Shown here piece after piece: positions 105-60,387 of a stretch of 64,000 bases of DNA; the stretch's first letter is position 1; each line of letters begins with the position of its first letter. Both the position numbers and the translations under genes were made by a program. The notes beneath the pieces were generated by a model. It was not told the DNA's origin. It saw nothing but the letters and a program-made list of their open reading frames with translations, and did not search any database. Source of the stretch: Candidatus Falkowbacteria bacterium RIFOXYC2_FULL_36_12 (lineage in GTDB: Bacteria; Patescibacteriota; Patescibacteriia; UBA11705); NCBI GenBank assembly GCA_001778235.1, contig MFGJ01000008.1, positions 129,148 through 193,147 on the forward strand, written 5' to 3'.

Positions 105-1853
105 TTACATTTCTTTTATAGCTTCTATATTAAGCAATTCTAAACCCTTTAGCAAGACCTGACTAACTTTCTTTAATAACATTAATCTTGCTTGTTTAAC
201 ATCGTTTTCAGCTTTCAATACTTGATGTTTATGATAAAACCCATTAAATTTCTGGGCTAACTCAATTAAATAGGTACACAAATATGAACCTTGATATTTT
301 TCAGCCGATACCACAATACTTTCCTCAAACAAACTTAGATGCTTTATCAAACTTTGTTCTTCAACTTCCTTCAAAACTGTAAAATCAATATTTTCTTTGT
401 TTTTTTCTTTTTTCAAAATTGAATTTATGCGCGCAACTGTATAAAGTAAATAAGGACCAGTCGAACCCTCAATGGACATAGCCTTTTCCATATCAAAAAC
501 AATTACAGTATTATTCTCGTATTTCAGCATCCAGAATTTCAAGGCAGCTAAAGCAATTTTTTCTGCCGTTGAATCAATTTTCTTAACCGACCAATCAGAG
601 TGTCTCTGCGCAGTCTCATTTATCAGCCTCTTCTTCATTTCTCCAAACAATGACATAAAAGTTATTACATTCCCTTTTCTTGAGGCCATAGCTCCATCAG
701 GCAATGTTACAAAATCATATGCAACATGAATTTTTTCTTTATCTTCATATCCCAATAGATCCAACAATTTAAAAATTTGTTTCATGTACAAACTTTGCCT
801 ATTATCAACCAGATAAATCGATTTATCAATTCCAAATTCATCAAATTTCTTTTTCCCGAGTGGTAAATCTTTTGTCCCGTAGAGAACATTCCCATCAGAT
901 TTAATCAAAACCAATACATCCAGACCAAATTTTTTCAACTCTGCGATTATTGCCCCTTCACTCTCTTTTATTTCAGGGATTGTTTTATTTTTTACAATTT
1001 CATTAATCAATTTCTTGCCTTCAATTTCCTCTTCACTCTCAAAAAACCATTGATCAAATTTTACACCAAGTAAATCATATACAACCTGAAACCCATCCAT
1101 ACTCCACTCTTTTGTTTGTTGCCATAGCTTAACCATATCACTATCCTGATTCTCCAATTTTCTCTGAATTTCAGAAACTTCCTGACTCAACTCTGGATTT
1201 TCTTCTAATTTTTGGACCGCTTCAGCATACATTTGACCAAGAAACTCACCTTTACTTTTATTTTCAACAAGGTAATTTCCACTAGGAAACTTTTTTTGTA
1301 AAAACCACAAACATTTTGCCACATGCACTCCAGCATCACCAATATAGTTGGCTGCTATCACCTCATTACCTTGATATCGCAAAATATTAACCAGTGATGA
1401 CCCAAGGCAAGCATTTCGTAAATGTCCCACATGAAATTCCTTATGTGTATTTGGTTGTGAATACTCAACCATAACTTTACTCGCTATTCTCACTTTACTC
1501 GCTGTACTCGCTGTACTCGCTGTACTCACTTTTCCCGCTTTCAACACACTTTCATTCCATTTCCCGAGTTTTAACTGAAAATTCAAGTATGGCCCAGTAG
1601 CCTCAACCCTTTCCCAAAGATTACCTTTAATTTGAGTCAATTTTTTACTTAATTCACTGGCAAACTGTGCAGGATTTTGTTTTTTTTCTTTTGCTAGCTG
1701 AAAAACTGGCAAAGCAAATTGCCCCAATTCAATTTTTGGTGGATTAGCCAAAATATTTTCTTCAAACTCCGTATTCAAAATTTTATTTATCTCTTCAACC
1801 AATTGTTTTTTTATACCTTTCATATATTTATTATTAAAGTCACAATTCATCAC
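105..1853 (-). CDS. argS: arginyl-tRNA synthetase
   Basis: Class I HIGH motif (HVGHLRN) and overall ArgRS layout. The track start is GTG; the true ATG may be 1850 or 1823. Confidence 0.9.
   Translation of the reverse strand: MMNCDFNNKYMKGIKKQLVEEINKILNTEFEENILANPPKIELGQFALPVFQLAKEKKQNPAQFASELSKKLTQIKGNLWERVEATGPYLNFQLKLGKWNESVLKAGKVSTASTASTASKVRIASKVMVEYSQPNTHKEFHVGHLRNACLGSSLVNILRYQGNEVIAANYIGDAGVHVAKCLWFLQKKFPSGNYLVENKSKGEFLGQMYAEAVQKLEENPELSQEVSEIQRKLENQDSDMVKLWQQTKEWSMDGFQVVYDLLGVKFDQWFFESEEEIEGKKLINEIVKNKTIPEIKESEGAIIAELKKFGLDVLVLIKSDGNVLYGTKDLPLGKKKFDEFGIDKSIYLVDNRQSLYMKQIFKLLDLLGYEDKEKIHVAYDFVTLPDGAMASRKGNVITFMSLFGEMKKRLINETAQRHSDWSVKKIDSTAEKIALAALKFWMLKYENNTVIVFDMEKAMSIEGSTGPYLLYTVARINSILKKEKNKENIDFTVLKEVEEQSLIKHLSLFEESIVVSAEKYQGSYLCTYLIELAQKFNGFYHKHQVLKAENDVKQARLMLLKKVSQVLLKGLELLNIEAIKEM
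1477..1539. repeat. 9-bp periodic tandem repeat tract (TTACTCGCT/GTACTCGCT, about 7 units) in frame inside argS
   Basis: Direct reading: ...tttactcgct attctcact ttactcgct gtactcgct gtactcgct gtactcact tttcccgct. It is translated on the minus strand as ...STASTASTAS... Confidence 0.7.
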
Positions 1854-8210: not shown

Positions 8211-8348
8211 ATACTACTTCACAAACCCATTTTTTTATGCTATTATAGCTTTAGTTTCCTAATTCAAGGTTACTTGAGACATAGAATAACTCAATCACAC
8301 ATTCACACTTTACTTGCATTTCTCGCTTTGTTCTTATCTCGCTTTTTC

Positions 8349-8425
8349 GGGCCTGTAGCTCAGTTGGTTAGAGCACCACTCTTATAAAGTGGGGGTCATG
8401 GGTTCAAGTCCCATCAGGCCTACCA
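8349..8425 (+). tRNA. tRNA-Ile, anticodon UAU
   Basis: Cloverleaf folded by hand: 7-bp acceptor stem, anticodon stem ccact/agtgg, loop cttataa, TTCAAGT T-loop, 3' CCA encoded. Close to E. coli tRNA-Ile except for the anticodon. Confidence 0.8.
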
Positions 8426-8426
8426 T

Positions 8427-8503
8427 GGGCAATTAGCTCAGTTGGTTAGAGCGCATCATTGACGTTGATGAGGTCAGAAGTTCGACTCTTCTATTGCCCA
8501 CCA
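8427..8503 (+). tRNA. tRNA-Val, anticodon GAC
   Basis: Acceptor gggcaat/attgccc, anticodon loop ttGACgt, T-arm agaag-ttcgact-cttct, encoded CCA. Confidence 0.85.
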
Positions 8504-29689: not shown

Positions 29690-30331
29690 TCAGAAGATTA
29701 AACTGTAGACAAATTCAATTATCGCATTAAAAAAATATCCAAAAATATTTAATCCGACAACATTATCTAAAATTAGCAAAATTAAGAGTAAAATAGGCCC
29801 TCGAGTCTCCAAAAAGCTCCTAAAATTTCTAAATCTCTCACCATCTAGTATTGAGAATAGAACCTTTGAGCCATCAAGCGGAGGAATTGGTATTAAATTA
29901 AAAAGCATTAAAATAACATTCAAAATGACAAAAATATTCAAAAATTGAAATAATAAATTTTCTGGAGGTAAAATATTCATCCCAGCAATTATTTTCAAAA
30001 CAATACCCGAGAATATCGCCAATAATAAATTTGACGCTGGACCTGCAAGCGCAACCAAAGCCGGCCCCCATTTCTGGTATTTCAAATTATATGGATTGTA
30101 TGGCACTGGCTTTCCCCAGCCAAAACCAACAAGTAGCAACATCAAAAAACCCACTCCACTTACATGAGATATTGGGTTTAAAGTTAATCGTCCCAATGAT
30201 TTTGCTGTATCATCACCCATCAAAGCGCTGGCTAAAGCATGAGAAAACTCATGTACAGACAAAACAATTAAAATTGCCACCACCCAAGCAATGAAAATCA
30301 TCGGGTCTGAAAGCAATGTTCCTAATATCAT
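29690..30331 (-). CDS. M50-family (site-2 protease-like) membrane zinc metalloprotease
   Basis: HEFSHA (HExxH) in a TM helix, multiple TM segments, about 213 aa. Confidence 0.7.
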   Translation of the reverse strand: MILGTLLSDPMIFIAWVVAILIVLSVHEFSHALASALMGDDTAKSLGRLTLNPISHVSGVGFLMLLLVGFGWGKPVPYNPYNLKYQKWGPALVALAGPASNLLLAIFSGIVLKIIAGMNILPPENLLFQFLNIFVILNVILMLFNLIPIPPLDGSKVLFSILDGERFRNFRSFLETRGPILLLILLILDNVVGLNIFGYFFNAIIEFVYSLIF

Positions 30332-30370: not shown

Positions 30371-30461
30371 TTACCTTGCTTTACTTGCTGTACTCGCTGT
30401 ACTCGCTGTACTCGCTGTACTCGCTGTACTCGCTGTACTCGCTGTTCCCACTTTTCCCACC
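30371..30461. repeat. Intergenic 9-bp tandem repeat tract (6 perfect GTACTCGCT units flanked by degenerate units)
   Basis: Direct reading of 30390..30443 with degenerate flanks ttaccttgct, ttacttgct and gttcccact, tttcccacc. Same family as the argS tract. Confidence 0.8.
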
Positions 30462-30534
30462 AATCATACACTACTTGATTTATTTATTCAAATATGCTAT
30501 TCTATTGTTACTTGATGAATAACTTGAAAAAACT

Positions 30535-30711
30535 ATGTCAAAGTATTGTGATTTGTGTGGACGAGGACCTGTTTCTTCACAAAGTTCTTCACACGCTAAC
30601 AACAAAACAAAGCGCACTCTTAATATCAATCTTCAAACAAAAAAAATTGATGGTACCAAGGTAAAAGCTTGCACCAAATGCATGAAAACCTTGAAAAAAG
30701 CAGTTGCGTAA
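30535..30711 (+). CDS. rpmB: 50S ribosomal protein L28 (zinc-ribbon form), absent from the ORF track
   Basis: Translation MSKYCDLCGRGPVSSQSSSHANNKTKRTLNINLQTKKIDGTKVKACTKCMKTLKKAVA matches the L28 signature (CxxCG+xP...SHAxNxTKR...NL) and has a second CxxC. Confidence 0.8.
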   Translation: MSKYCDLCGRGPVSSQSSSHANNKTKRTLNINLQTKKIDGTKVKACTKCMKTLKKAVA

Positions 30712-35362: not shown

Positions 35363-37915
35363 TTAAATAATTTTTGCGTTTGGATAATTTTTACTTAAAT
35401 CTTCTCTTTGTTTTATTGACAAATTCTTACAATAAATTTTCCCCTGGAAAGCAACCGGCAGTTTCAAACCTTCAGCCGTCTTTAATCCTGACAAATCAAT
35501 ATCACCGCCAATGTTCTCGGGCAGTTTCAAACCATCAGCTGTCGTTAATCCTGACAACACAAGATCCCCACCAATGCTCTCGGGCAATTTCAATCCTTCA
35601 GCTGTCGTTAATCCTGACAACACAAAATCCCCACCAATGCTCTCGGGCAGTTTCAAGCCTTCGACTGTCATTAATCCGTTCAAAAAAAGATCACTGCCAA
35701 TGCTCTCGGGCAATTTCAATCCTTCAGCTGTCGTTAATCCTGACAAATAAAGCTTACCGCCAATACTCTCGGGCAGTTTCAAGCCTTCAGCTGTCGTTAA
35801 TCCTGACAACTCAAGATCCCTGCCAATGTTCTCGGGCAGTTTCAAGCCTTTAGCCGTCGTTAATCCTGACAAATCAAGATCCCTGCCAATGTTCTCGGGC
35901 AGATTCAAGCCTTTAGCCGTCGTTAATTTCATCAAAGACAAAGAGCCACCAATAATCTCGGGCAATTTCAATCCTTCAGCTGTTGTTAAATCCTGCAACT
36001 CAAGATTACCACCAATACACTCTGGCATTATCAATCCTTTAGCCGTCGTTAATCCTGATAAATTAAGAAGTCCGCCAATGCTCTCGGGTAGTTTCAAACC
36101 ATCAGCCGTCTTTAATCCACGCAATGCAAGAGAGCCACCAATACTCTTGGGCAGTTCCAAGCCTTTAGCGGTTGTTAATCCTGACAAATAAAGATTACCG
36201 CCAATACTCTCGGGTAGTTTCAAGCCTTCAGCTGTCTCTAATCCTGACAAATAAAGCTTACCGCCAATACTCTCGGGCAGATTCAAGCCTTCAGCCGTCG
36301 TTAATCCTGACAAATCAAGATTACCACCAATAATCTTGGGCAATTTCAATCCTTCAGCCGTCGTTAATCCTGACAAATCAATATCCCTGCCAATGTTCTC
36401 GGGCAATTTCAATCCTTCAGCTGTCGTTAATCCTGACAAAGAAAGATTACCATAATGAAATTTAATTTCACCACTCACAGCTTCCTCATTTGTCAAGCTT
36501 ATCTTATCCTTGGGAAAACCTGTCACCACCACCAAATCAGCCCTTATATCCTTTCGGTTACTCTTGATTTCTTCCAAACGCGGATCAGCCTCATAACCAA
36601 ATCCTTTAATTTTACCGTCAAACTCATACAAAAATCTCAAATCACTCTTTGCCAGTTCTTGCCCTTGTCTATTTCTCTCCCAAACATCTGTCAATTGCTC
36701 CATATCTGCAGTCTTCTGCTTGTACTCATCTCCTTCCTTGCCAAATTCATCCATTTTCTTTTCCACCACTGGACCAATATATGGATCCAGATTCTGATCA
36801 GTCGCTATACCTCGGACTTCAGCGATTTTTTCTTTCCCCTCCATGCGTATCGCAATCCTAGGAATCACAGCTTCACCATCTTCATTATAGGAATAATAGA
36901 CATAAAAATCTCCTCCTGCCAACTGTTTTCTGGCCGTCTCAATATCAGCTGTGCACCATTCTAGTGGATAACCCTCAAGGCTTTTTACCAACTCATCCGG
37001 TTTTGATTTCTGCGGGAAAATTTTCCACTCTCCTTTAATTTCCTCCAGTCCTTCAGTCGCGTATTCAGGAATTTCCAGTAAAAATTGTGCGTAAAGTTTG
37101 GCAAAGTTTTCCTTCGATAATAATTTAATAAATTCATTTTCCTTTAATTTCTTACTGTCATTTTTTATTTGCAATTTCAACAATTCTTCCTCTCTTTGTT
37201 CTTTGGGCTTTTGCTTTTCTCTCGCCACCCTTTCTTTTTCTTCCAAATAACCAATCATCACTCCGATTGTTTTTGCCAAGGCCCGAGAGTTCAAGAGTGG
37301 AAAGGTGTTTGTAGTTGAACCAGTTCTTCGCTGAAACTGCGCCTTGACGCTTCCATTTATGTCTTCTTTTTTCACCAACTTGCCCATTTTCAGCATTGAA
37401 GTAAACGCCCAATACTTGGCCCACATCGGATACTGGGCATCGTCTGAAGTCAGGTAATTGAACCAAGTTTCTAAACTTTTCGCTTGGTTGTTTCTCACCA
37501 CCACCAACGACTGCTCCCTCATTTCTACCGGAAAAATATAGTTGACAATCTGCTCATCTGACTCATCTCTGATTACTCTTTTTTCCACCCCATTTTGTTC
37601 CAAATCTCCACCATATCCCTGACGAATCATTATTTCCGCCTGGTTATTCCAATATCCTTGAGGTATGTCATCAAGTGTTAGTGTCACATATCTCCGGTAA
37701 TAATATTGTTTTAGTCGTTCCATCACTTTCGGATCATCTCTGTGCCCCAAGTGGGTTCGCTCCAGCACCTTCATCCAATCCGACAACTTTTCCGCTGGCT
37801 TTTGCGTAGTCTGCTCACCACGCCGTTTTTTCCTATCCTGTTCATGCATCGCCGGATCAGACAAATGAAGCTCTGTATCTTTTTGATGTAAAAATTTTTC
37901 TCCAAAATTTGTCAT
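35363..37915 (-). CDS. large repeat protein: about 480-aa unknown N-terminal domain plus about 22 tandem 20-aa Leu-rich (LRR-like) repeats
   Basis: C-terminal 20-aa repeats, consensus LDLSGLTTAEGLKLPESIGG; no signal peptide seen. The start overlaps the trmH stop (ATGA). Confidence 0.6.
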   Translation of the reverse strand: MTNFGEKFLHQKDTELHLSDPAMHEQDRKKRRGEQTTQKPAEKLSDWMKVLERTHLGHRDDPKVMERLKQYYYRRYVTLTLDDIPQGYWNNQAEIMIRQGYGGDLEQNGVEKRVIRDESDEQIVNYIFPVEMREQSLVVVRNNQAKSLETWFNYLTSDDAQYPMWAKYWAFTSMLKMGKLVKKEDINGSVKAQFQRRTGSTTNTFPLLNSRALAKTIGVMIGYLEEKERVAREKQKPKEQREEELLKLQIKNDSKKLKENEFIKLLSKENFAKLYAQFLLEIPEYATEGLEEIKGEWKIFPQKSKPDELVKSLEGYPLEWCTADIETARKQLAGGDFYVYYSYNEDGEAVIPRIAIRMEGKEKIAEVRGIATDQNLDPYIGPVVEKKMDEFGKEGDEYKQKTADMEQLTDVWERNRQGQELAKSDLRFLYEFDGKIKGFGYEADPRLEEIKSNRKDIRADLVVVTGFPKDKISLTNEEAVSGEIKFHYGNLSLSGLTTAEGLKLPENIGRDIDLSGLTTAEGLKLPKIIGGNLDLSGLTTAEGLNLPESIGGKLYLSGLETAEGLKLPESIGGNLYLSGLTTAKGLELPKSIGGSLALRGLKTADGLKLPESIGGLLNLSGLTTAKGLIMPECIGGNLELQDLTTAEGLKLPEIIGGSLSLMKLTTAKGLNLPENIGRDLDLSGLTTAKGLKLPENIGRDLELSGLTTAEGLKLPESIGGKLYLSGLTTAEGLKLPESIGSDLFLNGLMTVEGLKLPESIGGDFVLSGLTTAEGLKLPESIGGDLVLSGLTTADGLKLPENIGGDIDLSGLKTAEGLKLPVAFQGKIYCKNLSIKQREDLSKNYPNAKII
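35400..36450. repeat. Near-identical 60-bp tandem repeats (coding, within the LRR-like gene)
   Basis: Repeating ...ctctcgggcagtttcaagccttcagctgtcgttaatcctgacaa... units, GC-richer than the surroundings. Confidence 0.8.
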
Positions 37916-47024: not shown

Positions 47025-47084
47025 TCATTGTTAGGCCTGTACCTTCAATGGTCCAATCTGGACCCGAAACGAGAGGAGACTCCC

Positions 47085-47780
47085 ATGGGAATCACCCTGC
47101 TCCAGCGCATCATCAACCCCAGAGCCAAGGGGACAGTGGATGATCCGGAAGAAATTTGGCCAGAGAAGTTCAACAACAACCCCAGAGCACTGATCGCCAT
47201 CTGGAACTTCATTCCGAAAGTCAACCATGACTGCCCGCTGTGGCAGGCGGTCATCGCCATCTTCAAGGAACTCGAAAAGTTCGACATTGAAGACAACTAC
47301 TGCCCCACCATCGAGGTCTACAACGGTCAGGACCAGAAACCCCAAGTCCTGATCATGGTGGACCGCCCTATCACCACCGGCTACATCGCCAAAACCCAGG
47401 TCTACGGTCCGGCGGATGAACTGATCGCGATCTACAACTCTCTCATCATCTTCACCATCGACATACACAGGAGTCGCTGCTGGCGTAGCCGGTCATGGAT
47501 CACTGCCTGGCTCTGCGCCCTCGGCTTCACAGAGGACGAGGCACACATGCTGGCTTCGGACAGAGATTTCCACCTGAACACCACCGCCTGCTACTTCCTC
47601 ACCCGCCTCGGCCTCCAACTCGGCCACGATGTCGAGGAATGCCTCGAACTTGCGAAGCAAATCAAACGCGAAGCCGATGTGGACGCGATCATCGAACTAC
47701 TGCTCGAAGACCGCTCACTCGGCCTCGACGACGCCGTCGCCCTGGCCTGTCCGATCCCCCGCCCGATCACCCACACCTGA
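47085..47780 (+). CDS. GC-rich hypothetical protein of evident foreign origin (231 aa)
   Basis: Strong G/C third-position bias in this frame only (atc acc ctg ctc cag cgc ...). The flanking DNA is AT-rich. No recognisable motif. Confidence 0.6.
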   Translation: MGITLLQRIINPRAKGTVDDPEEIWPEKFNNNPRALIAIWNFIPKVNHDCPLWQAVIAIFKELEKFDIEDNYCPTIEVYNGQDQKPQVLIMVDRPITTGYIAKTQVYGPADELIAIYNSLIIFTIDIHRSRCWRSRSWITAWLCALGFTEDEAHMLASDRDFHLNTTACYFLTRLGLQLGHDVEECLELAKQIKREADVDAIIELLLEDRSLGLDDAVALACPIPRPITHT

Positions 47781-47931
47781 AATCCACCAACAACAAGTAA
47801 ACAACAACAACAAACCGACTCATAAAAGTGAGCGGTTTTCAGTTTAAATTTTATTCAGTTATAATATAATTATCAATTAAATTTTATCCTTATGCTAAAA
47901 ATTGACTGGACAAATAAAAATTTATTCAACA

Positions 47932-48330
47932 CCACAAACACGATAAGCCTCGGGGCTTGTCTGCCGTAATCTTGATGAAGGCAGGTCTGGGGGGATTCTT
48001 AACATCAAAAAGCACGCCATAGACTTGATCAAGGGTACCACGCAGAGCGTAATCAATCACTTAATCTCAAAAAAACTTGCTTTAACAAAACTTATCACCT
48101 ACTTTATATATTAAATTCCACAAACACGGCAAGCATCGGGTCTTGCCTGCCGTAATCTTGATGAAGGCAGGTCTGGGTGAACAAGCGCGTCATCAAAACC
48201 ACGAACTTGATCAAAACAATTCGCATTTGTTCACCCAGTGGTTTTTGCATACTTTTTGCCATCAAAAAGTATGACGCGAAGCGTAATCAATCACTTATTC
48301 TCAAAATAACTTACTTTAGCAAAACAACAA
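47932..48330 (+). repeat. Two tandem copies (about 186-nt period) of a structured element with conserved 5' and 3' modules and a variable middle
   Basis: Copies start at 47932 and 48118 (ccacaaacacg...). Both carry ctgccgtaatcttgatgaaggcaggtctggg and gcgtaatcaatcactta-tctcaaaa-aactt-cttta-caaaac. Confidence 0.6.
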
Positions 48331-48465
48331 CTTACATTTAGATTACACTAGTGATCACTACATTCATTTGTTTCGCCTTTAAACCTATATATCAGCTGTC
48401 GCTGTTGGTTTATGTTTAAAACAAAAAAATCTTCACTTAGTTTAGCAAAGATAAATTAGTTTTGA

Positions 48466-53237: not shown

Positions 53238-53354
53238 CCTAACTAAACTAATTCAGCATTATCAAGAAATAAAGCAATCACCCCTATCACATCATTCACA
53301 CCAATAACAACTTTACTTGCTTTATTCTTATCTCGCTGACCTCGCTAAAAAAAT

Positions 53355-53933
53355 ATGTTTGAATTACCAAAATTGGATTATCCCTATGATGCGCTTGAGC
53401 CACACATTGACGCGCATACAATGGAAATTCATCACTTAAAACATCATCAAGGCTACACTGACAAATTCAACGCTGTACTAGAAAAATACCCCATAATTGG
53501 CTCAATGCCTCTGGAAAATATTTTCCAAAAATTAAATGACCTAGAAATAGCTGAACCAGACCGCCAAGCAATCCGCAACAATGGAGGCGGTTACATCAAT
53601 CACAAAATTTTCTGGCAATCAATGGCGCCCGAAAAACAAATTGATCATGAGCTTATCAAAGAAATTGAAACTTCTTTTGGTTCAGTCGAAAATTTCAAAC
53701 AACAATTTTCCGATATTGCCAAAAATCAATTCGGCAGTGGCTGGGCTTGGCTTGTCAGAGATCAAAATAATGCCTTAAAAATTTATTCCCTACTCAATCA
53801 AGATTCACCTTATACATTAGGACATACCCCTATTTTCAACCTGGATGTTTGGGAACATGCCTACTACCTTAAGTACCAAAACAAACGCCCAGACTATGTT
53901 GAAGCTTGGTGGAATGTATTGAAGTTTTTATAA
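53355..53933 (+). CDS. Fe/Mn superoxide dismutase
   Basis: LPxLxYxYDALEPHID, HHxKHH and DVWEHAYY metal-ligand motifs. Confidence 0.9.
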   Translation: MFELPKLDYPYDALEPHIDAHTMEIHHLKHHQGYTDKFNAVLEKYPIIGSMPLENIFQKLNDLEIAEPDRQAIRNNGGGYINHKIFWQSMAPEKQIDHELIKEIETSFGSVENFKQQFSDIAKNQFGSGWAWLVRDQNNALKIYSLLNQDSPYTLGHTPIFNLDVWEHAYYLKYQNKRPDYVEAWWNVLKFL

Positions 53934-54021
53934 ACAAACTTCATTTTAAAAGATCCTAAGAAATTTAATATAAAAATAACTTGCGTGATTGGCCTCATGC
54001 GAGTTATTTTTACCAGCTACT

Positions 54022-59037: not shown

Positions 59038-60387
59038 CTATTCCATTGAAACTTCATCCAATAAAGTTTTTAGCGCCTCTTCACTGATAACCGGCGGAAC
59101 TCCAGCTTCGGTTGGAGGTAAAGCTAAACACTTGGTCTTATAATCAAAAAATTCTCCGTCAGGAACAGCCACTGAAACAGTTAAATAATCAGCCTTGTAA
59201 GTTTGTGTTAGCTTAAGATATGAGTTGATGCCACCTTTAGAGTTCTCCAATTTCTTCGCACTCAATTGAAATGTTATAATCCCACCAGCTTGTTTTTTCC
59301 TCCTTTGGATATCTGCAATCACTTCAAAATCAGAAAACCCATATTTTGCAAACAACTTATTGATTGAGTCCAACTTCTCAACATTTTTTTCTTTTATCTC
59401 TGATTGTTCCCGTTCCCACTCCTGATAACTCCCATAAATCTCATTCGCTTCAGTTTCAGGTTGCTTATCTGCATCAAGAGCTAACTTCTCCAACAAGTCT
59501 CTACCTTGTTCACTATCAAGATCCAACAACTCTCCAATCCCTCTATTTTCCGCAAAATCAATAGTCTGCGGTTCAGCCATTTTAAAATCTTTAGTTCCAT
59601 CTTTTTTAAATAATGTTATAGTCCCACGACCATGACGAACAGCTTCGGTTCCATATGAGAAAAAATAACTTTTATTATTTATTTCAATTTCTCCTCTCAC
59701 ATGAAAATTCACGCGATCGCTAATACCAGCAGGGGTCATTTCTATCTTCAAATTTGATAAACCAATTTTTTTTAACACTGTCTTTACATCCTCTATCACT
59801 TGTTCCTCTTCTGTTTCAAATTTGAGCATTGTTTCAGCACCACCACACTCATACTCAATCCTCTGAACTATTTGTGTTTTATCTATTGATGAAACTGATT
59901 CTGAATAAATAAAGTTAACAATCATATCATCAACACTTCTAGGCCCAGAATCTTTTTTTGGGACACCAGCTATAAGTGACTCTACATAATCAGAATCAAA
60001 ATCATTTATCATTTGATCAACACTTCTATACCCAGAATCTTTTTTTGGGCCAGCAACTGTACTGACTTCTAAATGATCAGAATCATCCATCATTTGATCA
60101 GCACCTGTATCCCCAGAATCTTTTTCTTGGTCAACTCTAGCAGGAACATCTTTATCCGCCATTAATGCCGTAGCCACATTTTCTTGTGATGTTGCCTCTG
60201 CGAGTTCCTCTGCTCTACTTGCTTTTTGTTTGTCATAATACTCTTGTCGTTCATCTTCGGTTAATTGTTCTTCAATTTTTTTCTTACCAAACATGTCAGC
60301 CATTCTGCCGGCAAGACCAATTGGTTTTTTGTCTGTCATAAATTTATTATTAATTATTTTATTCTCTACTACCTGATTTTGATCCAA
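59038..60387 (-). CDS. hypothetical acidic protein with an internal duplicated segment (KKDSGYRSVDQMINDF / KKDSGPRSVDDMIVNF)
   Basis: ORF with its own terminator. No family recognised. Confidence 0.45.
   Translation of the reverse strand: MDQNQVVENKIINNKFMTDKKPIGLAGRMADMFGKKKIEEQLTEDERQEYYDKQKASRAEELAEATSQENVATALMADKDVPARVDQEKDSGDTGADQMMDDSDHLEVSTVAGPKKDSGYRSVDQMINDFDSDYVESLIAGVPKKDSGPRSVDDMIVNFIYSESVSSIDKTQIVQRIEYECGGAETMLKFETEEEQVIEDVKTVLKKIGLSNLKIEMTPAGISDRVNFHVRGEIEINNKSYFFSYGTEAVRHGRGTITLFKKDGTKDFKMAEPQTIDFAENRGIGELLDLDSEQGRDLLEKLALDADKQPETEANEIYGSYQEWEREQSEIKEKNVEKLDSINKLFAKYGFSDFEVIADIQRRKKQAGGIITFQLSAKKLENSKGGINSYLKLTQTYKADYLTVSVAVPDGEFFDYKTKCLALPPTEAGVPPVISEEALKTLLDEVSME

Follow-up and report, generated by a model that had tools for sequence, protein, structure and literature searches.

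A dispersed family of 9-nt repeats with a shared 42-nt module in Candidatus Falkowbacteria

Four repeat tracts in 64,000 nucleotides of Candidatus Falkowbacteria bacterium RIFOXYC2_FULL_36_12 (the whole stretch analysed, hereafter the window; 34% G+C, from a Rifle groundwater genome) form a genuine, non-random family of related sequences that is common to at least two species of Falkowbacteria. They are located inside argS, between the genes of an M50 protease and rpmB, upstream of tRNA-Ile and upstream of the superoxide dismutase gene (sod), and all four are on the plus strand (Table 1). The explanation that we favour, with moderate confidence, is a tolerated interspersed minisatellite restricted to the lineage of Candidatus Falkowbacteria. 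We count it among the small interspersed repeats known from bacteria, the present case being a new one from a lineage of the Candidate Phyla Radiation. To our knowledge, repeat families have hardly been described in genomes of this radiation (Patescibacteria), and a literature search for 9-bp repeats or for repeats of Patescibacteria found nothing pertinent.

Table 1 Repeat copies of the window and the genes and promoters next to them
Feature	Position	Strand	Description
argS array	1474..1539	+ (gene on minus)	Inside ORF 105-1853
tRNA operon promoter	8218..8246	+	Sigma-70-type, TTCACA-17-TATTAT with TG; upstream of and outside the repeat copy
tRNA-Ile copy, ~90 nt	8259..8348	+	5' leader of the tRNA-Ile(UAU)/tRNA-Val precursor
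Peptidase_M50 gene	29690-30331	-	Left neighbour of the largest array
Largest array, M50/rpmB	30371..30461	+	Two decayed, six perfect GTACTCGCT and two decayed units; divergent spacer
M50 promoter	30463..30491	-	Sigma-70-type, TTGAAT-17-TATGAT; array begins directly 3' of the -10 hexamer
Inferred rpmB promoter	30475..30503	+	TTGATT-17-TATTCT; cTTGATT-N17-TAnnnT conserved in four species
rpmB (L28)	30535-30711	+	Right neighbour of the largest array
sod copy, ~90 nt	53248..53346	+	Paralogue of the tRNA-Ile leader copy; between the peroxiredoxin gene and sod

The four copies of the window

In the spacer between the M50 protease gene and rpmB, Tandem Repeats Finder delimited an array of period 9 (30378-30445, 7.6 copies, 96% matches), and the six perfect units with degenerate flanks of the initial annotation were recovered there (perfect units at 30390-30443). 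The decayed units are TACCTTGCT and TTACTTGCT at the 5' side and GTTCCCACT and TTTCCCACC at the 3' side. Since the array starts right after the -10 hexamer of the M50 promoter, it is the start of the M50 5' UTR, of which it makes up the first ~85 nt as predicted, read on the minus strand as (AGCGAGUAC)n. At its other end it stops 13 nt upstream of the -35 hexamer of rpmB, whose promoter was read from sequence comparison and scores below the threshold of the consensus scanner. An orthologue of the M50 promoter (TTGTCT-17-TATAAT) was found in contigs L206 and L207. Both divergent promoters are conserved around the array, which itself is absent from the orthologous spacers of three related species. 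The array is identical in five assemblies, a weak test of copy number given that these are near-identical (at most 4 SNPs in 6.6 kb), and one short-read contig breaks within it. The perfect array folds somewhat better than its shuffles (z = -3.1), with a weak hairpin based on GTAC.

The copy inside argS is in frame, as translation of the ORF confirmed, and gives the peptide ...KAGKVSTASTASTASKVRIASKV..., i.e. AGKV-STASTASTAS-KVRIASKV, just ahead of the catalytic-core motif MVEYSQPNTHKEFHVGH. This location corresponds to the linker that joins the N-terminal Add-1 domain to the catalytic core, a hypervariable segment whose length and sequence vary in each of the 49 homologues compared, all of which lack the insert. 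None of the six frames of the GTACTCGCT unit contains a stop codon and 9 nt is a multiple of three, so the array can sit in a gene without breaking it, and the absence of stop codons in the perfect unit accounts for its tolerance within argS. The last two units of the argS array (GTACTCACT TTTCCCGCT) are identical at 14 of 18 positions to the last two of the M50 array and carry the same derived changes, and therefore at least one of both arrays was copied as a block and they are not independent. The same ArgRS linker holds odd, unrelated inserts in other lineages of the Candidate Phyla Radiation, e.g. CRDEIYLVST and GETQFPLGKGSRLRPEK (homologues P0026, P0030, P0031, P0041, P0043 and P0053-P0057). 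These inserts resemble translated repeat elements, so that the linker, judged by sequence comparison, seems to be a general insertion hotspot across lineages.

The other two copies are shorter in units but longer in homology. The tract in front of tRNA-Ile(UAU) (8307-8343) stops 5 nt short of the tRNA, which starts at 8349, precisely the distance given in the initial annotation. With the nucleotides that follow it forms a terminal module of 42 nt (8307-8348, ACTTTACTTGC ATTTCTCGC TTTGTTCTTATCTCGCTTTTTC) that abuts the 5' end of the mature tRNA. As the promoter of the tRNA operon lies upstream, the repeat copy is within a transcribed leader of ~95 nt; this promoter is conserved in three species, being the same in UBA11705 and visible in CG10_39_11. 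The second of these tracts (53310-53346) stops 8 nt short of the ATG of sod at 53355, and not 9 nt as first noted. It belongs to a fur-prx-sod-nrdAB cluster in which the spacer between prx and sod measures 117 nt in the window versus 24 nt in CG10_39_11, which makes the sod copy an insertion of ~93 nt between both cistrons. Inspection of the borders of this insertion revealed no target duplication, and the consensus scanner detected no promoter-like site in the spacer.

Both short copies are homologous over ~90 nt (8259-8343 versus 53248-53337) with a local alignment score of 43, the shuffled sequences scoring 16.9 +/- 2.5 (z about 10), and they are the only sites of the window where the 13-mer TTCTTATCTCGCT appears exactly. 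The ends that they had been said to share are thus real; the 9-nt periodicity attributed to them is less evident, as each tract has only about two clear units, one fewer at sod than at the tRNA, and the homology extends far beyond them. A profile built from both copies retrieved no third full-length copy in the window. By itself the sod copy folds well (z = -5.5). A shared stem of the two 90-nt copies has a consensus energy of about 0 (-0.4 kcal/mol) with neither covariation nor compensatory pairs.

Some features of the surroundings of these copies deserve mention. The tRNA-Ile(UAU), with an anticodon that is rare in bacteria, is next to a tRNA-Val(GAC) (window 8349-8503), an arrangement shared by four Falkowbacteria species. 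The tRNA-Ile leader of CG10_39_11 contains a GC-rich segment (L204, 3095-3160) that begins like a tRNA (GGGTCCGTAGCTCC...) and could be either a decayed tRNA or a leader with structure. An 18-nt inverted repeat (53971-54012, 89% complementary, 6-nt loop) is located between the ribonucleotide reductase gene and sod and overlaps the listed TTG start of the former gene.

Could the four tracts be chance low-complexity sequence, produced by an extreme strand composition? The window is certainly peculiar in this regard. The GC skew of its plus strand ranges from -0.13 to -0.37 over all 64 kb with no sign change, far stronger than in most bacteria, and related Falkowbacteria loci have a skew of only 0.05-0.2. 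The plus strand is C-rich and G-poor and pyrimidine-rich words are therefore common in it; the core CTYRCT, for example, has 71 occurrences on the plus strand versus 11 on the minus strand. However, with at most one mismatch GTACTCGCT has 14 matches in the window versus 2.5 expected, a number reached in none of 100 shuffles that preserve dinucleotides, and ACTTTACTTGC has 8 versus 1.5, a number that the shuffles did not attain either. These counts, the 90-nt homology between the tRNA and sod copies and the presence of the same module in a second genome of weak skew, UBA11705, refute an origin by chance, to which we give hardly any probability, and they confirm that the tracts form one dispersed family as proposed from the start. 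Furthermore, an artefact of assembly is excluded by the presence of the arrays in independent assemblies from ENA, NCBI, JGI and Logan. Beyond the arrays, GTACTCGCT has 3 near-matches versus 2.5 expected, i.e. isolated units are not enriched, which speaks against a regulon in which single sites are bound.

The window and its vicinity contain other repeats. A 63-nt tandem repeat (35457-36451, 15.8 copies, 80% matches) is inside an ORF of 850 amino acids on the minus strand (35363-37915) with no Pfam match, and an 87-nt tandem repeat of 2.5 copies (59921-60130) is inside another minus-strand ORF (59038-60387). A region richer in G+C (47028-48341) includes a duplicated unit of ~230 nt (47920-48091 and 48106-48325) and a perfect TTGACA-17-TATAAT right at the start of an ORF (47028-47780) that gave no match in Pfam; this region may correspond to a non-coding RNA rather than to a protein. 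Finally, ~1.5 kb to the left of the window start (L211/L212) there is a 28-nt tandem duplication, TCTGCTGGCTTGCCAGCCGTAGCTCTGC, that contains a small palindrome and is polymorphic between two otherwise near-identical assemblies.

Recurrence of the family in related genomes

The four loci of the window and two of UBA11705 have units, head and tail in common, and a terminal module of ~42 nt, CTTTACTYGC..CTYGCTT..CTTATCTCGCTT, recurs among them. Recurrence in relatives, on which the initial annotation had made its interpretation depend, was found in UBA11705 (Falkowbacteria, L037), whose ArgRS is 63% identical to that of the window. This genome has an array of eight units upstream of murI (glutamate racemase), two GTACTCGCT followed by six TTACTYGCT, with a higher-order period of 27 nt (96% matches). 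The array continues into ...TATAACTTATCTCGCTTATTCT and then the ATG of murI. The orthologous tRNA-Ile(UAU) leader of UBA11705 carries ACTTTACTTGCTGTACTTGCTTACAACTTATCACTCTTAT directly before the tRNA, and outside the module the tRNA leaders of the window and of UBA11705 are unalignable.

The tRNA leader of UBA11705 is identical to the murI upstream region of the same genome at 35 of 42 positions (z = 10.3), and the tRNA leader of the window to that same murI region at 33 of 41 (z = 10.1). The two orthologous tRNA leaders share 28 of 38 positions, 74% (z = 3.8). In the window, the tRNA and sod modules are identical at 23 of 26 positions. Paralogous modules are thus more alike within a genome (83-88%) than orthologous ones between genomes (74%).

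Beyond these two genomes the phyletic pattern appears patchy from the sequences compared. Neither 42 kb of CG10_39_11 nor 21 kb of L218 yielded the family, and the module is absent from the orthologous tRNA sites of both; a weak trace of it, GCTTATCTCGCTT, was seen in L208. Two scans of viral contigs for the module gave nothing, and neither did the 10 kb at either side of the window contain more copies. The sequence sampled amounts to ~84 kb of the window genome and 50 kb of UBA11705, and the position statistics refer to six loci. From the comparison with these relatives, three of the four window copies (M50/rpmB, argS and sod) are lineage-specific insertions.

We also searched more widely. 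A scan of a genome collection with TACTCGCTNTACTCGCT was too unspecific, with at least 119 matches in unrelated phyla and UBA11705 as the only relevant one. A degenerate 27-mer gave 77 matches in metagenomes, most of them in eukaryote-like contigs or contigs of other bacteria, where they correspond to coding repeats or to unrelated minisatellites. Similar 9-mers arise independently elsewhere, so the metagenome matches are unusable to define the family. Two of the cases met are worth recording. In Candidatus Firestonebacteria (L140, 870-899 and 3285-3302), 9-nt arrays of the AGCAAGTAA type begin exactly at the TAA stops of leuA and leuD, what looks like an independent phenomenon in an unrelated phylum. 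In the strongly skewed contig L127 (5195-5285, also in L192), three TTACTYGCT units are followed after 8 nt by the ATG of a phosphoglycerate mutase gene, and the paralogue upstream has an inverted, purine-rich copy at its stop codon, the pair being able to form a hairpin of -20.8 kcal/mol.

Spread, amplification and possible function

Under the minisatellite explanation, the basic piece would be a pyrimidine-rich, non-palindromic module of ~42 nt, sometimes in a version of ~90 nt, with one or two 9-nt units (TTTACTYGC) at its start and CTTATCTCGCTT at its end. It would be copied in blocks to new sites, and the comparison with relatives shows that copies persist only where they do little harm: in the leader of a tRNA precursor, in a 5' UTR, between cistrons or in a hypervariable protein linker. 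Once a copy has at least two units, replication slippage or unequal exchange would amplify and homogenise the 9-nt unit locally. Indeed, the arrays have perfect central units and decayed ends, and these perfect cores and decayed edges, together with the super-period of 27 nt, are what local amplification by slippage or unequal exchange usually leaves behind. Copying in blocks is suggested by the 90-nt tRNA/sod pair and by the end units that argS and M50 share. To judge from the gene and promoter positions, all the window copies seem to be in transcribed yet dispensable sequence, and any effect of the repeats on expression is expected to be incidental and not designed. Among the three candidates offered by the initial annotation, a mobile or recombinogenic repeat is the one that fits best, by virtue of the three lineage-specific insertions and of the closer resemblance of copies from one genome than of orthologous ones, although no target-site duplications and no inverted ends were found at the copies.

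One regularity speaks against neutral insertion and is not predicted by it. At murI, at sod and at the tRNA-Ile of two species, 0-8 nt separate the end of the module from the gene-product start, and in all four cases the pyrimidine-rich strand of the module is the sense strand. In the tRNA leader, the kept length of the module and the identity of 74% between species could reflect constraint.

A mobiliser for the arrays might be sought in the REP-associated tyrosine transposase (RAYT) that is encoded ~3 kb past the right end of the window, or in another transposase, in which case they would be a new kind of non-autonomous element. The RAYT gene is in the same contig (NF047646, 91.4 bits versus a curated cut-off of 80), block copies have reached unrelated sites, the GTAC within the unit is self-complementary, and the perfect array has the somewhat better folding noted above. 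Against this, the expected substrates of RAYT are GC-rich hairpins, and one such perfect palindrome is actually in frame inside the RAYT gene itself (CCCCGAACTGACAGCC/GGCTGTCAGTTCGGGG; L216, 6256-6759). The 9-nt family is non-palindromic, has no terminal inverted repeats or target duplications, and no array adjoins the RAYT gene; a scan for inverted repeats at the four loci gave nothing. We regard this route as improbable.

Perfect tandem units are mutable by slippage, and the arrays could for this reason be phase-variable contingency loci in which the gain or loss of units switches or tunes M50, rpmB, argS or sod. An ArgRS variant (P0005) lacks 6 residues, equivalent to 18 nt or two units, but it comes from a protein-level assembler, which can collapse repeats; the contig broken within the M50/rpmB array would also agree with variation. 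However, a 9-nt unit is unable to shift the reading frame, no array is between -35 and -10 hexamers, the genes are housekeeping ones and not those of surface or restriction-modification functions, and the copy number is the same in the five near-identical assemblies, weak as this test is. The phase-variable promoter element suggested in the initial annotation is accordingly not sustained, and phase variation at these loci is very improbable.

Arrays of binding sites fared no better, with isolated units not being enriched. Several specific candidates were discarded. The best match of the arrays to the DnaA box TTATCCACA has 2-3 mismatches and falls outside the repeating unit, nor do the arrays correspond to iterons of 17-22 bp. 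A replication origin is at odds with the constant sign of the skew over the 64 kb and with the lack of dnaA/dnaN or rep genes adjoining the arrays. In a search of Rfam, two tRNAs were the only hits of the window that reached the gathering score, none of them at the repeats.

There is another reading that takes the position of the modules at gene starts as support. On this view the module would be a portable cassette with a function, as a 5' leader or in cis-regulation, and the arrays would have arisen by expansion of the unit that is recognised in it. The 9-mer and the CTTATCTCGCTT tail would be read by a DNA- or RNA-binding factor specific to the lineage, by an alternative sigma factor or by an RNase, with the result that the 5' end of the gene directly downstream is set or its expression boosted. 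At murI, at sod and at the tRNA-Ile of both species, the module is in sense orientation and in close contact with the gene-product start, and the last CTCGCT is 5-8 nt upstream of this start; within the tRNA leader, the module is conserved and the remaining sequence is not. Most genes of the window have no Shine-Dalgarno sequence, so unusual leaders could matter. Still, on the evidence below we find such a function rather unlikely.

The module has no sigma-70-like pair of hexamers with workable spacing. TTTACT and TTATCT are poor hexamers, from the tRNA copy to the sod copy their spacing changes by 9 nt, and the scanner finds none, so that a sigma-70 promoter in the module was rejected, as was by eye a sigma-54 reading (-24/-12) of ...TTGCA, which lacks the GG. 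The sod copy is one unit shorter than the tRNA copy, so spacing within the module is not conserved. Canonical promoters do exist and are conserved, ahead of the tRNA copy as well as around the M50/rpmB array. These promoters are outside the repeats, and the copies lie in a leader, in a 5' UTR and between cistrons, so that the promoter-proximal position initially ascribed to the family is not supported. In addition, the copies at M50 and argS run antisense to the transcripts that hold them, isolated units are at the expected frequency, the genes downstream of the module share nothing, no conserved RNA structure was found (the same -0.4 kcal/mol and zero compensatory pairs), and in CG10_39_11 and L218 the same genes function without the module at the orthologous sites.

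Given that no sigma-70-like or sigma-54-like promoter was found in the module, that its spacing varies and that CG10_39_11 and L218 work without it, a leader or processing role is a minority hypothesis, of low probability. Put as a portable 5'-end cassette of some Falkowbacteria, in which the arrays are runaway expansions of the recognition unit of the 42-nt module, it is to our mind decidedly unlikely; this version would cover tRNAs and mRNAs devoid of Shine-Dalgarno sequences, and the putative factor would be an RNA-binding protein, an RNase or an unconventional form of promoter recognition. Concerning the gene starts of the window in general, the Shine-Dalgarno motif GGAG is present only at tuf and at one neighbouring gene, and several promoters have their -10 hexamer within ~10 nt of the start codon, which suggests transcripts with short or absent leaders.

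Relation to known repeats and significance

The initial annotation saw no obvious precedent for such a family. This was overstated, since the minisatellites known as MIRU (mycobacterial interspersed repetitive units) and the in-frame insertions of Rickettsia palindromic elements (RPE) are close analogues. Like MIRU, the repeats considered here as a tolerated minisatellite are direct, non-palindromic tandem repeats of one related unit spread over several loci (four in the window and two in UBA11705), and their units are homogenised and vary in number from locus to locus. MIRU typically occupy transcribed intergenic spacers of operons and are oriented with transcription, a situation matched by the prx-sod copy and by the copy ahead of tRNA-Ile but not by those of M50 and argS, both antisense. 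Unlike MIRU, the unit is of 9 nt and not of 46-101 nt, there are no small overlapping ORFs that couple translation (at the sod copy no short ORF overlaps the flanking stop and start), and a non-repeated module of 42-90 nt accompanies the units. Like the RPE, the family has copies in non-coding DNA as well as one in frame within an essential gene, at a permissive site that here is the ArgRS linker. The RPE, on the other hand, are palindromic, selfish elements of 100-150 bp, and the Falkowbacteria family is non-palindromic and made of 9-nt units. By analogy, therefore, the family would behave like MIRU and RPE while failing their unit size, overlapping ORFs and palindromy.

With other systems the parallels are more superficial. 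The contingency loci of Neisseria, Haemophilus and Mycoplasma also have perfect short units near gene starts, mutable by slippage in principle, but here the unit length is divisible by three, the array is outside the promoter spacer and the targets are housekeeping genes (argS, M50/rpmB, tRNA-Ile, sod and murI); polymorphism of that kind was not detected in the five assemblies, themselves differing by at most 4 SNPs in 6.6 kb. Putative mobile promoters, reportedly homologous upstream sequences ahead of non-homologous genes ("promoter propagation in prokaryotes"), have a parallel in the upstream homology of tRNA-Ile and sod and in that of tRNA-Ile and murI in UBA11705. Nonetheless, the only promoter recognised at the tRNA locus is outside the duplicated segment, which starts at 8259 and is a transcribed leader. 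As in REP/BIME systems, the repeat is small, dispersed and extragenic and the genome encodes a RAYT, yet the repeat has no hairpin or palindrome, no GTAG-type head with its stem, and does not adjoin the RAYT gene. The family fails the defining features of contingency loci, of REP/MITE elements, of DnaA or iteron arrays and of mobile promoters.

The genomes of the Candidate Phyla Radiation are small and usually regarded as streamlined, yet this one gains and tolerates selfish or neutral insertions in a tRNA leader, in a 5' UTR, in the spacer of an operon and even in an aminoacyl-tRNA synthetase. From a practical point of view, the arrays could act as strain-typing (VNTR) markers for uncultured Falkowbacteria. 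If instead the module proved to be a 5'-end cassette, it would be a first handle on 5'-end formation and on Shine-Dalgarno-independent expression in these organisms.
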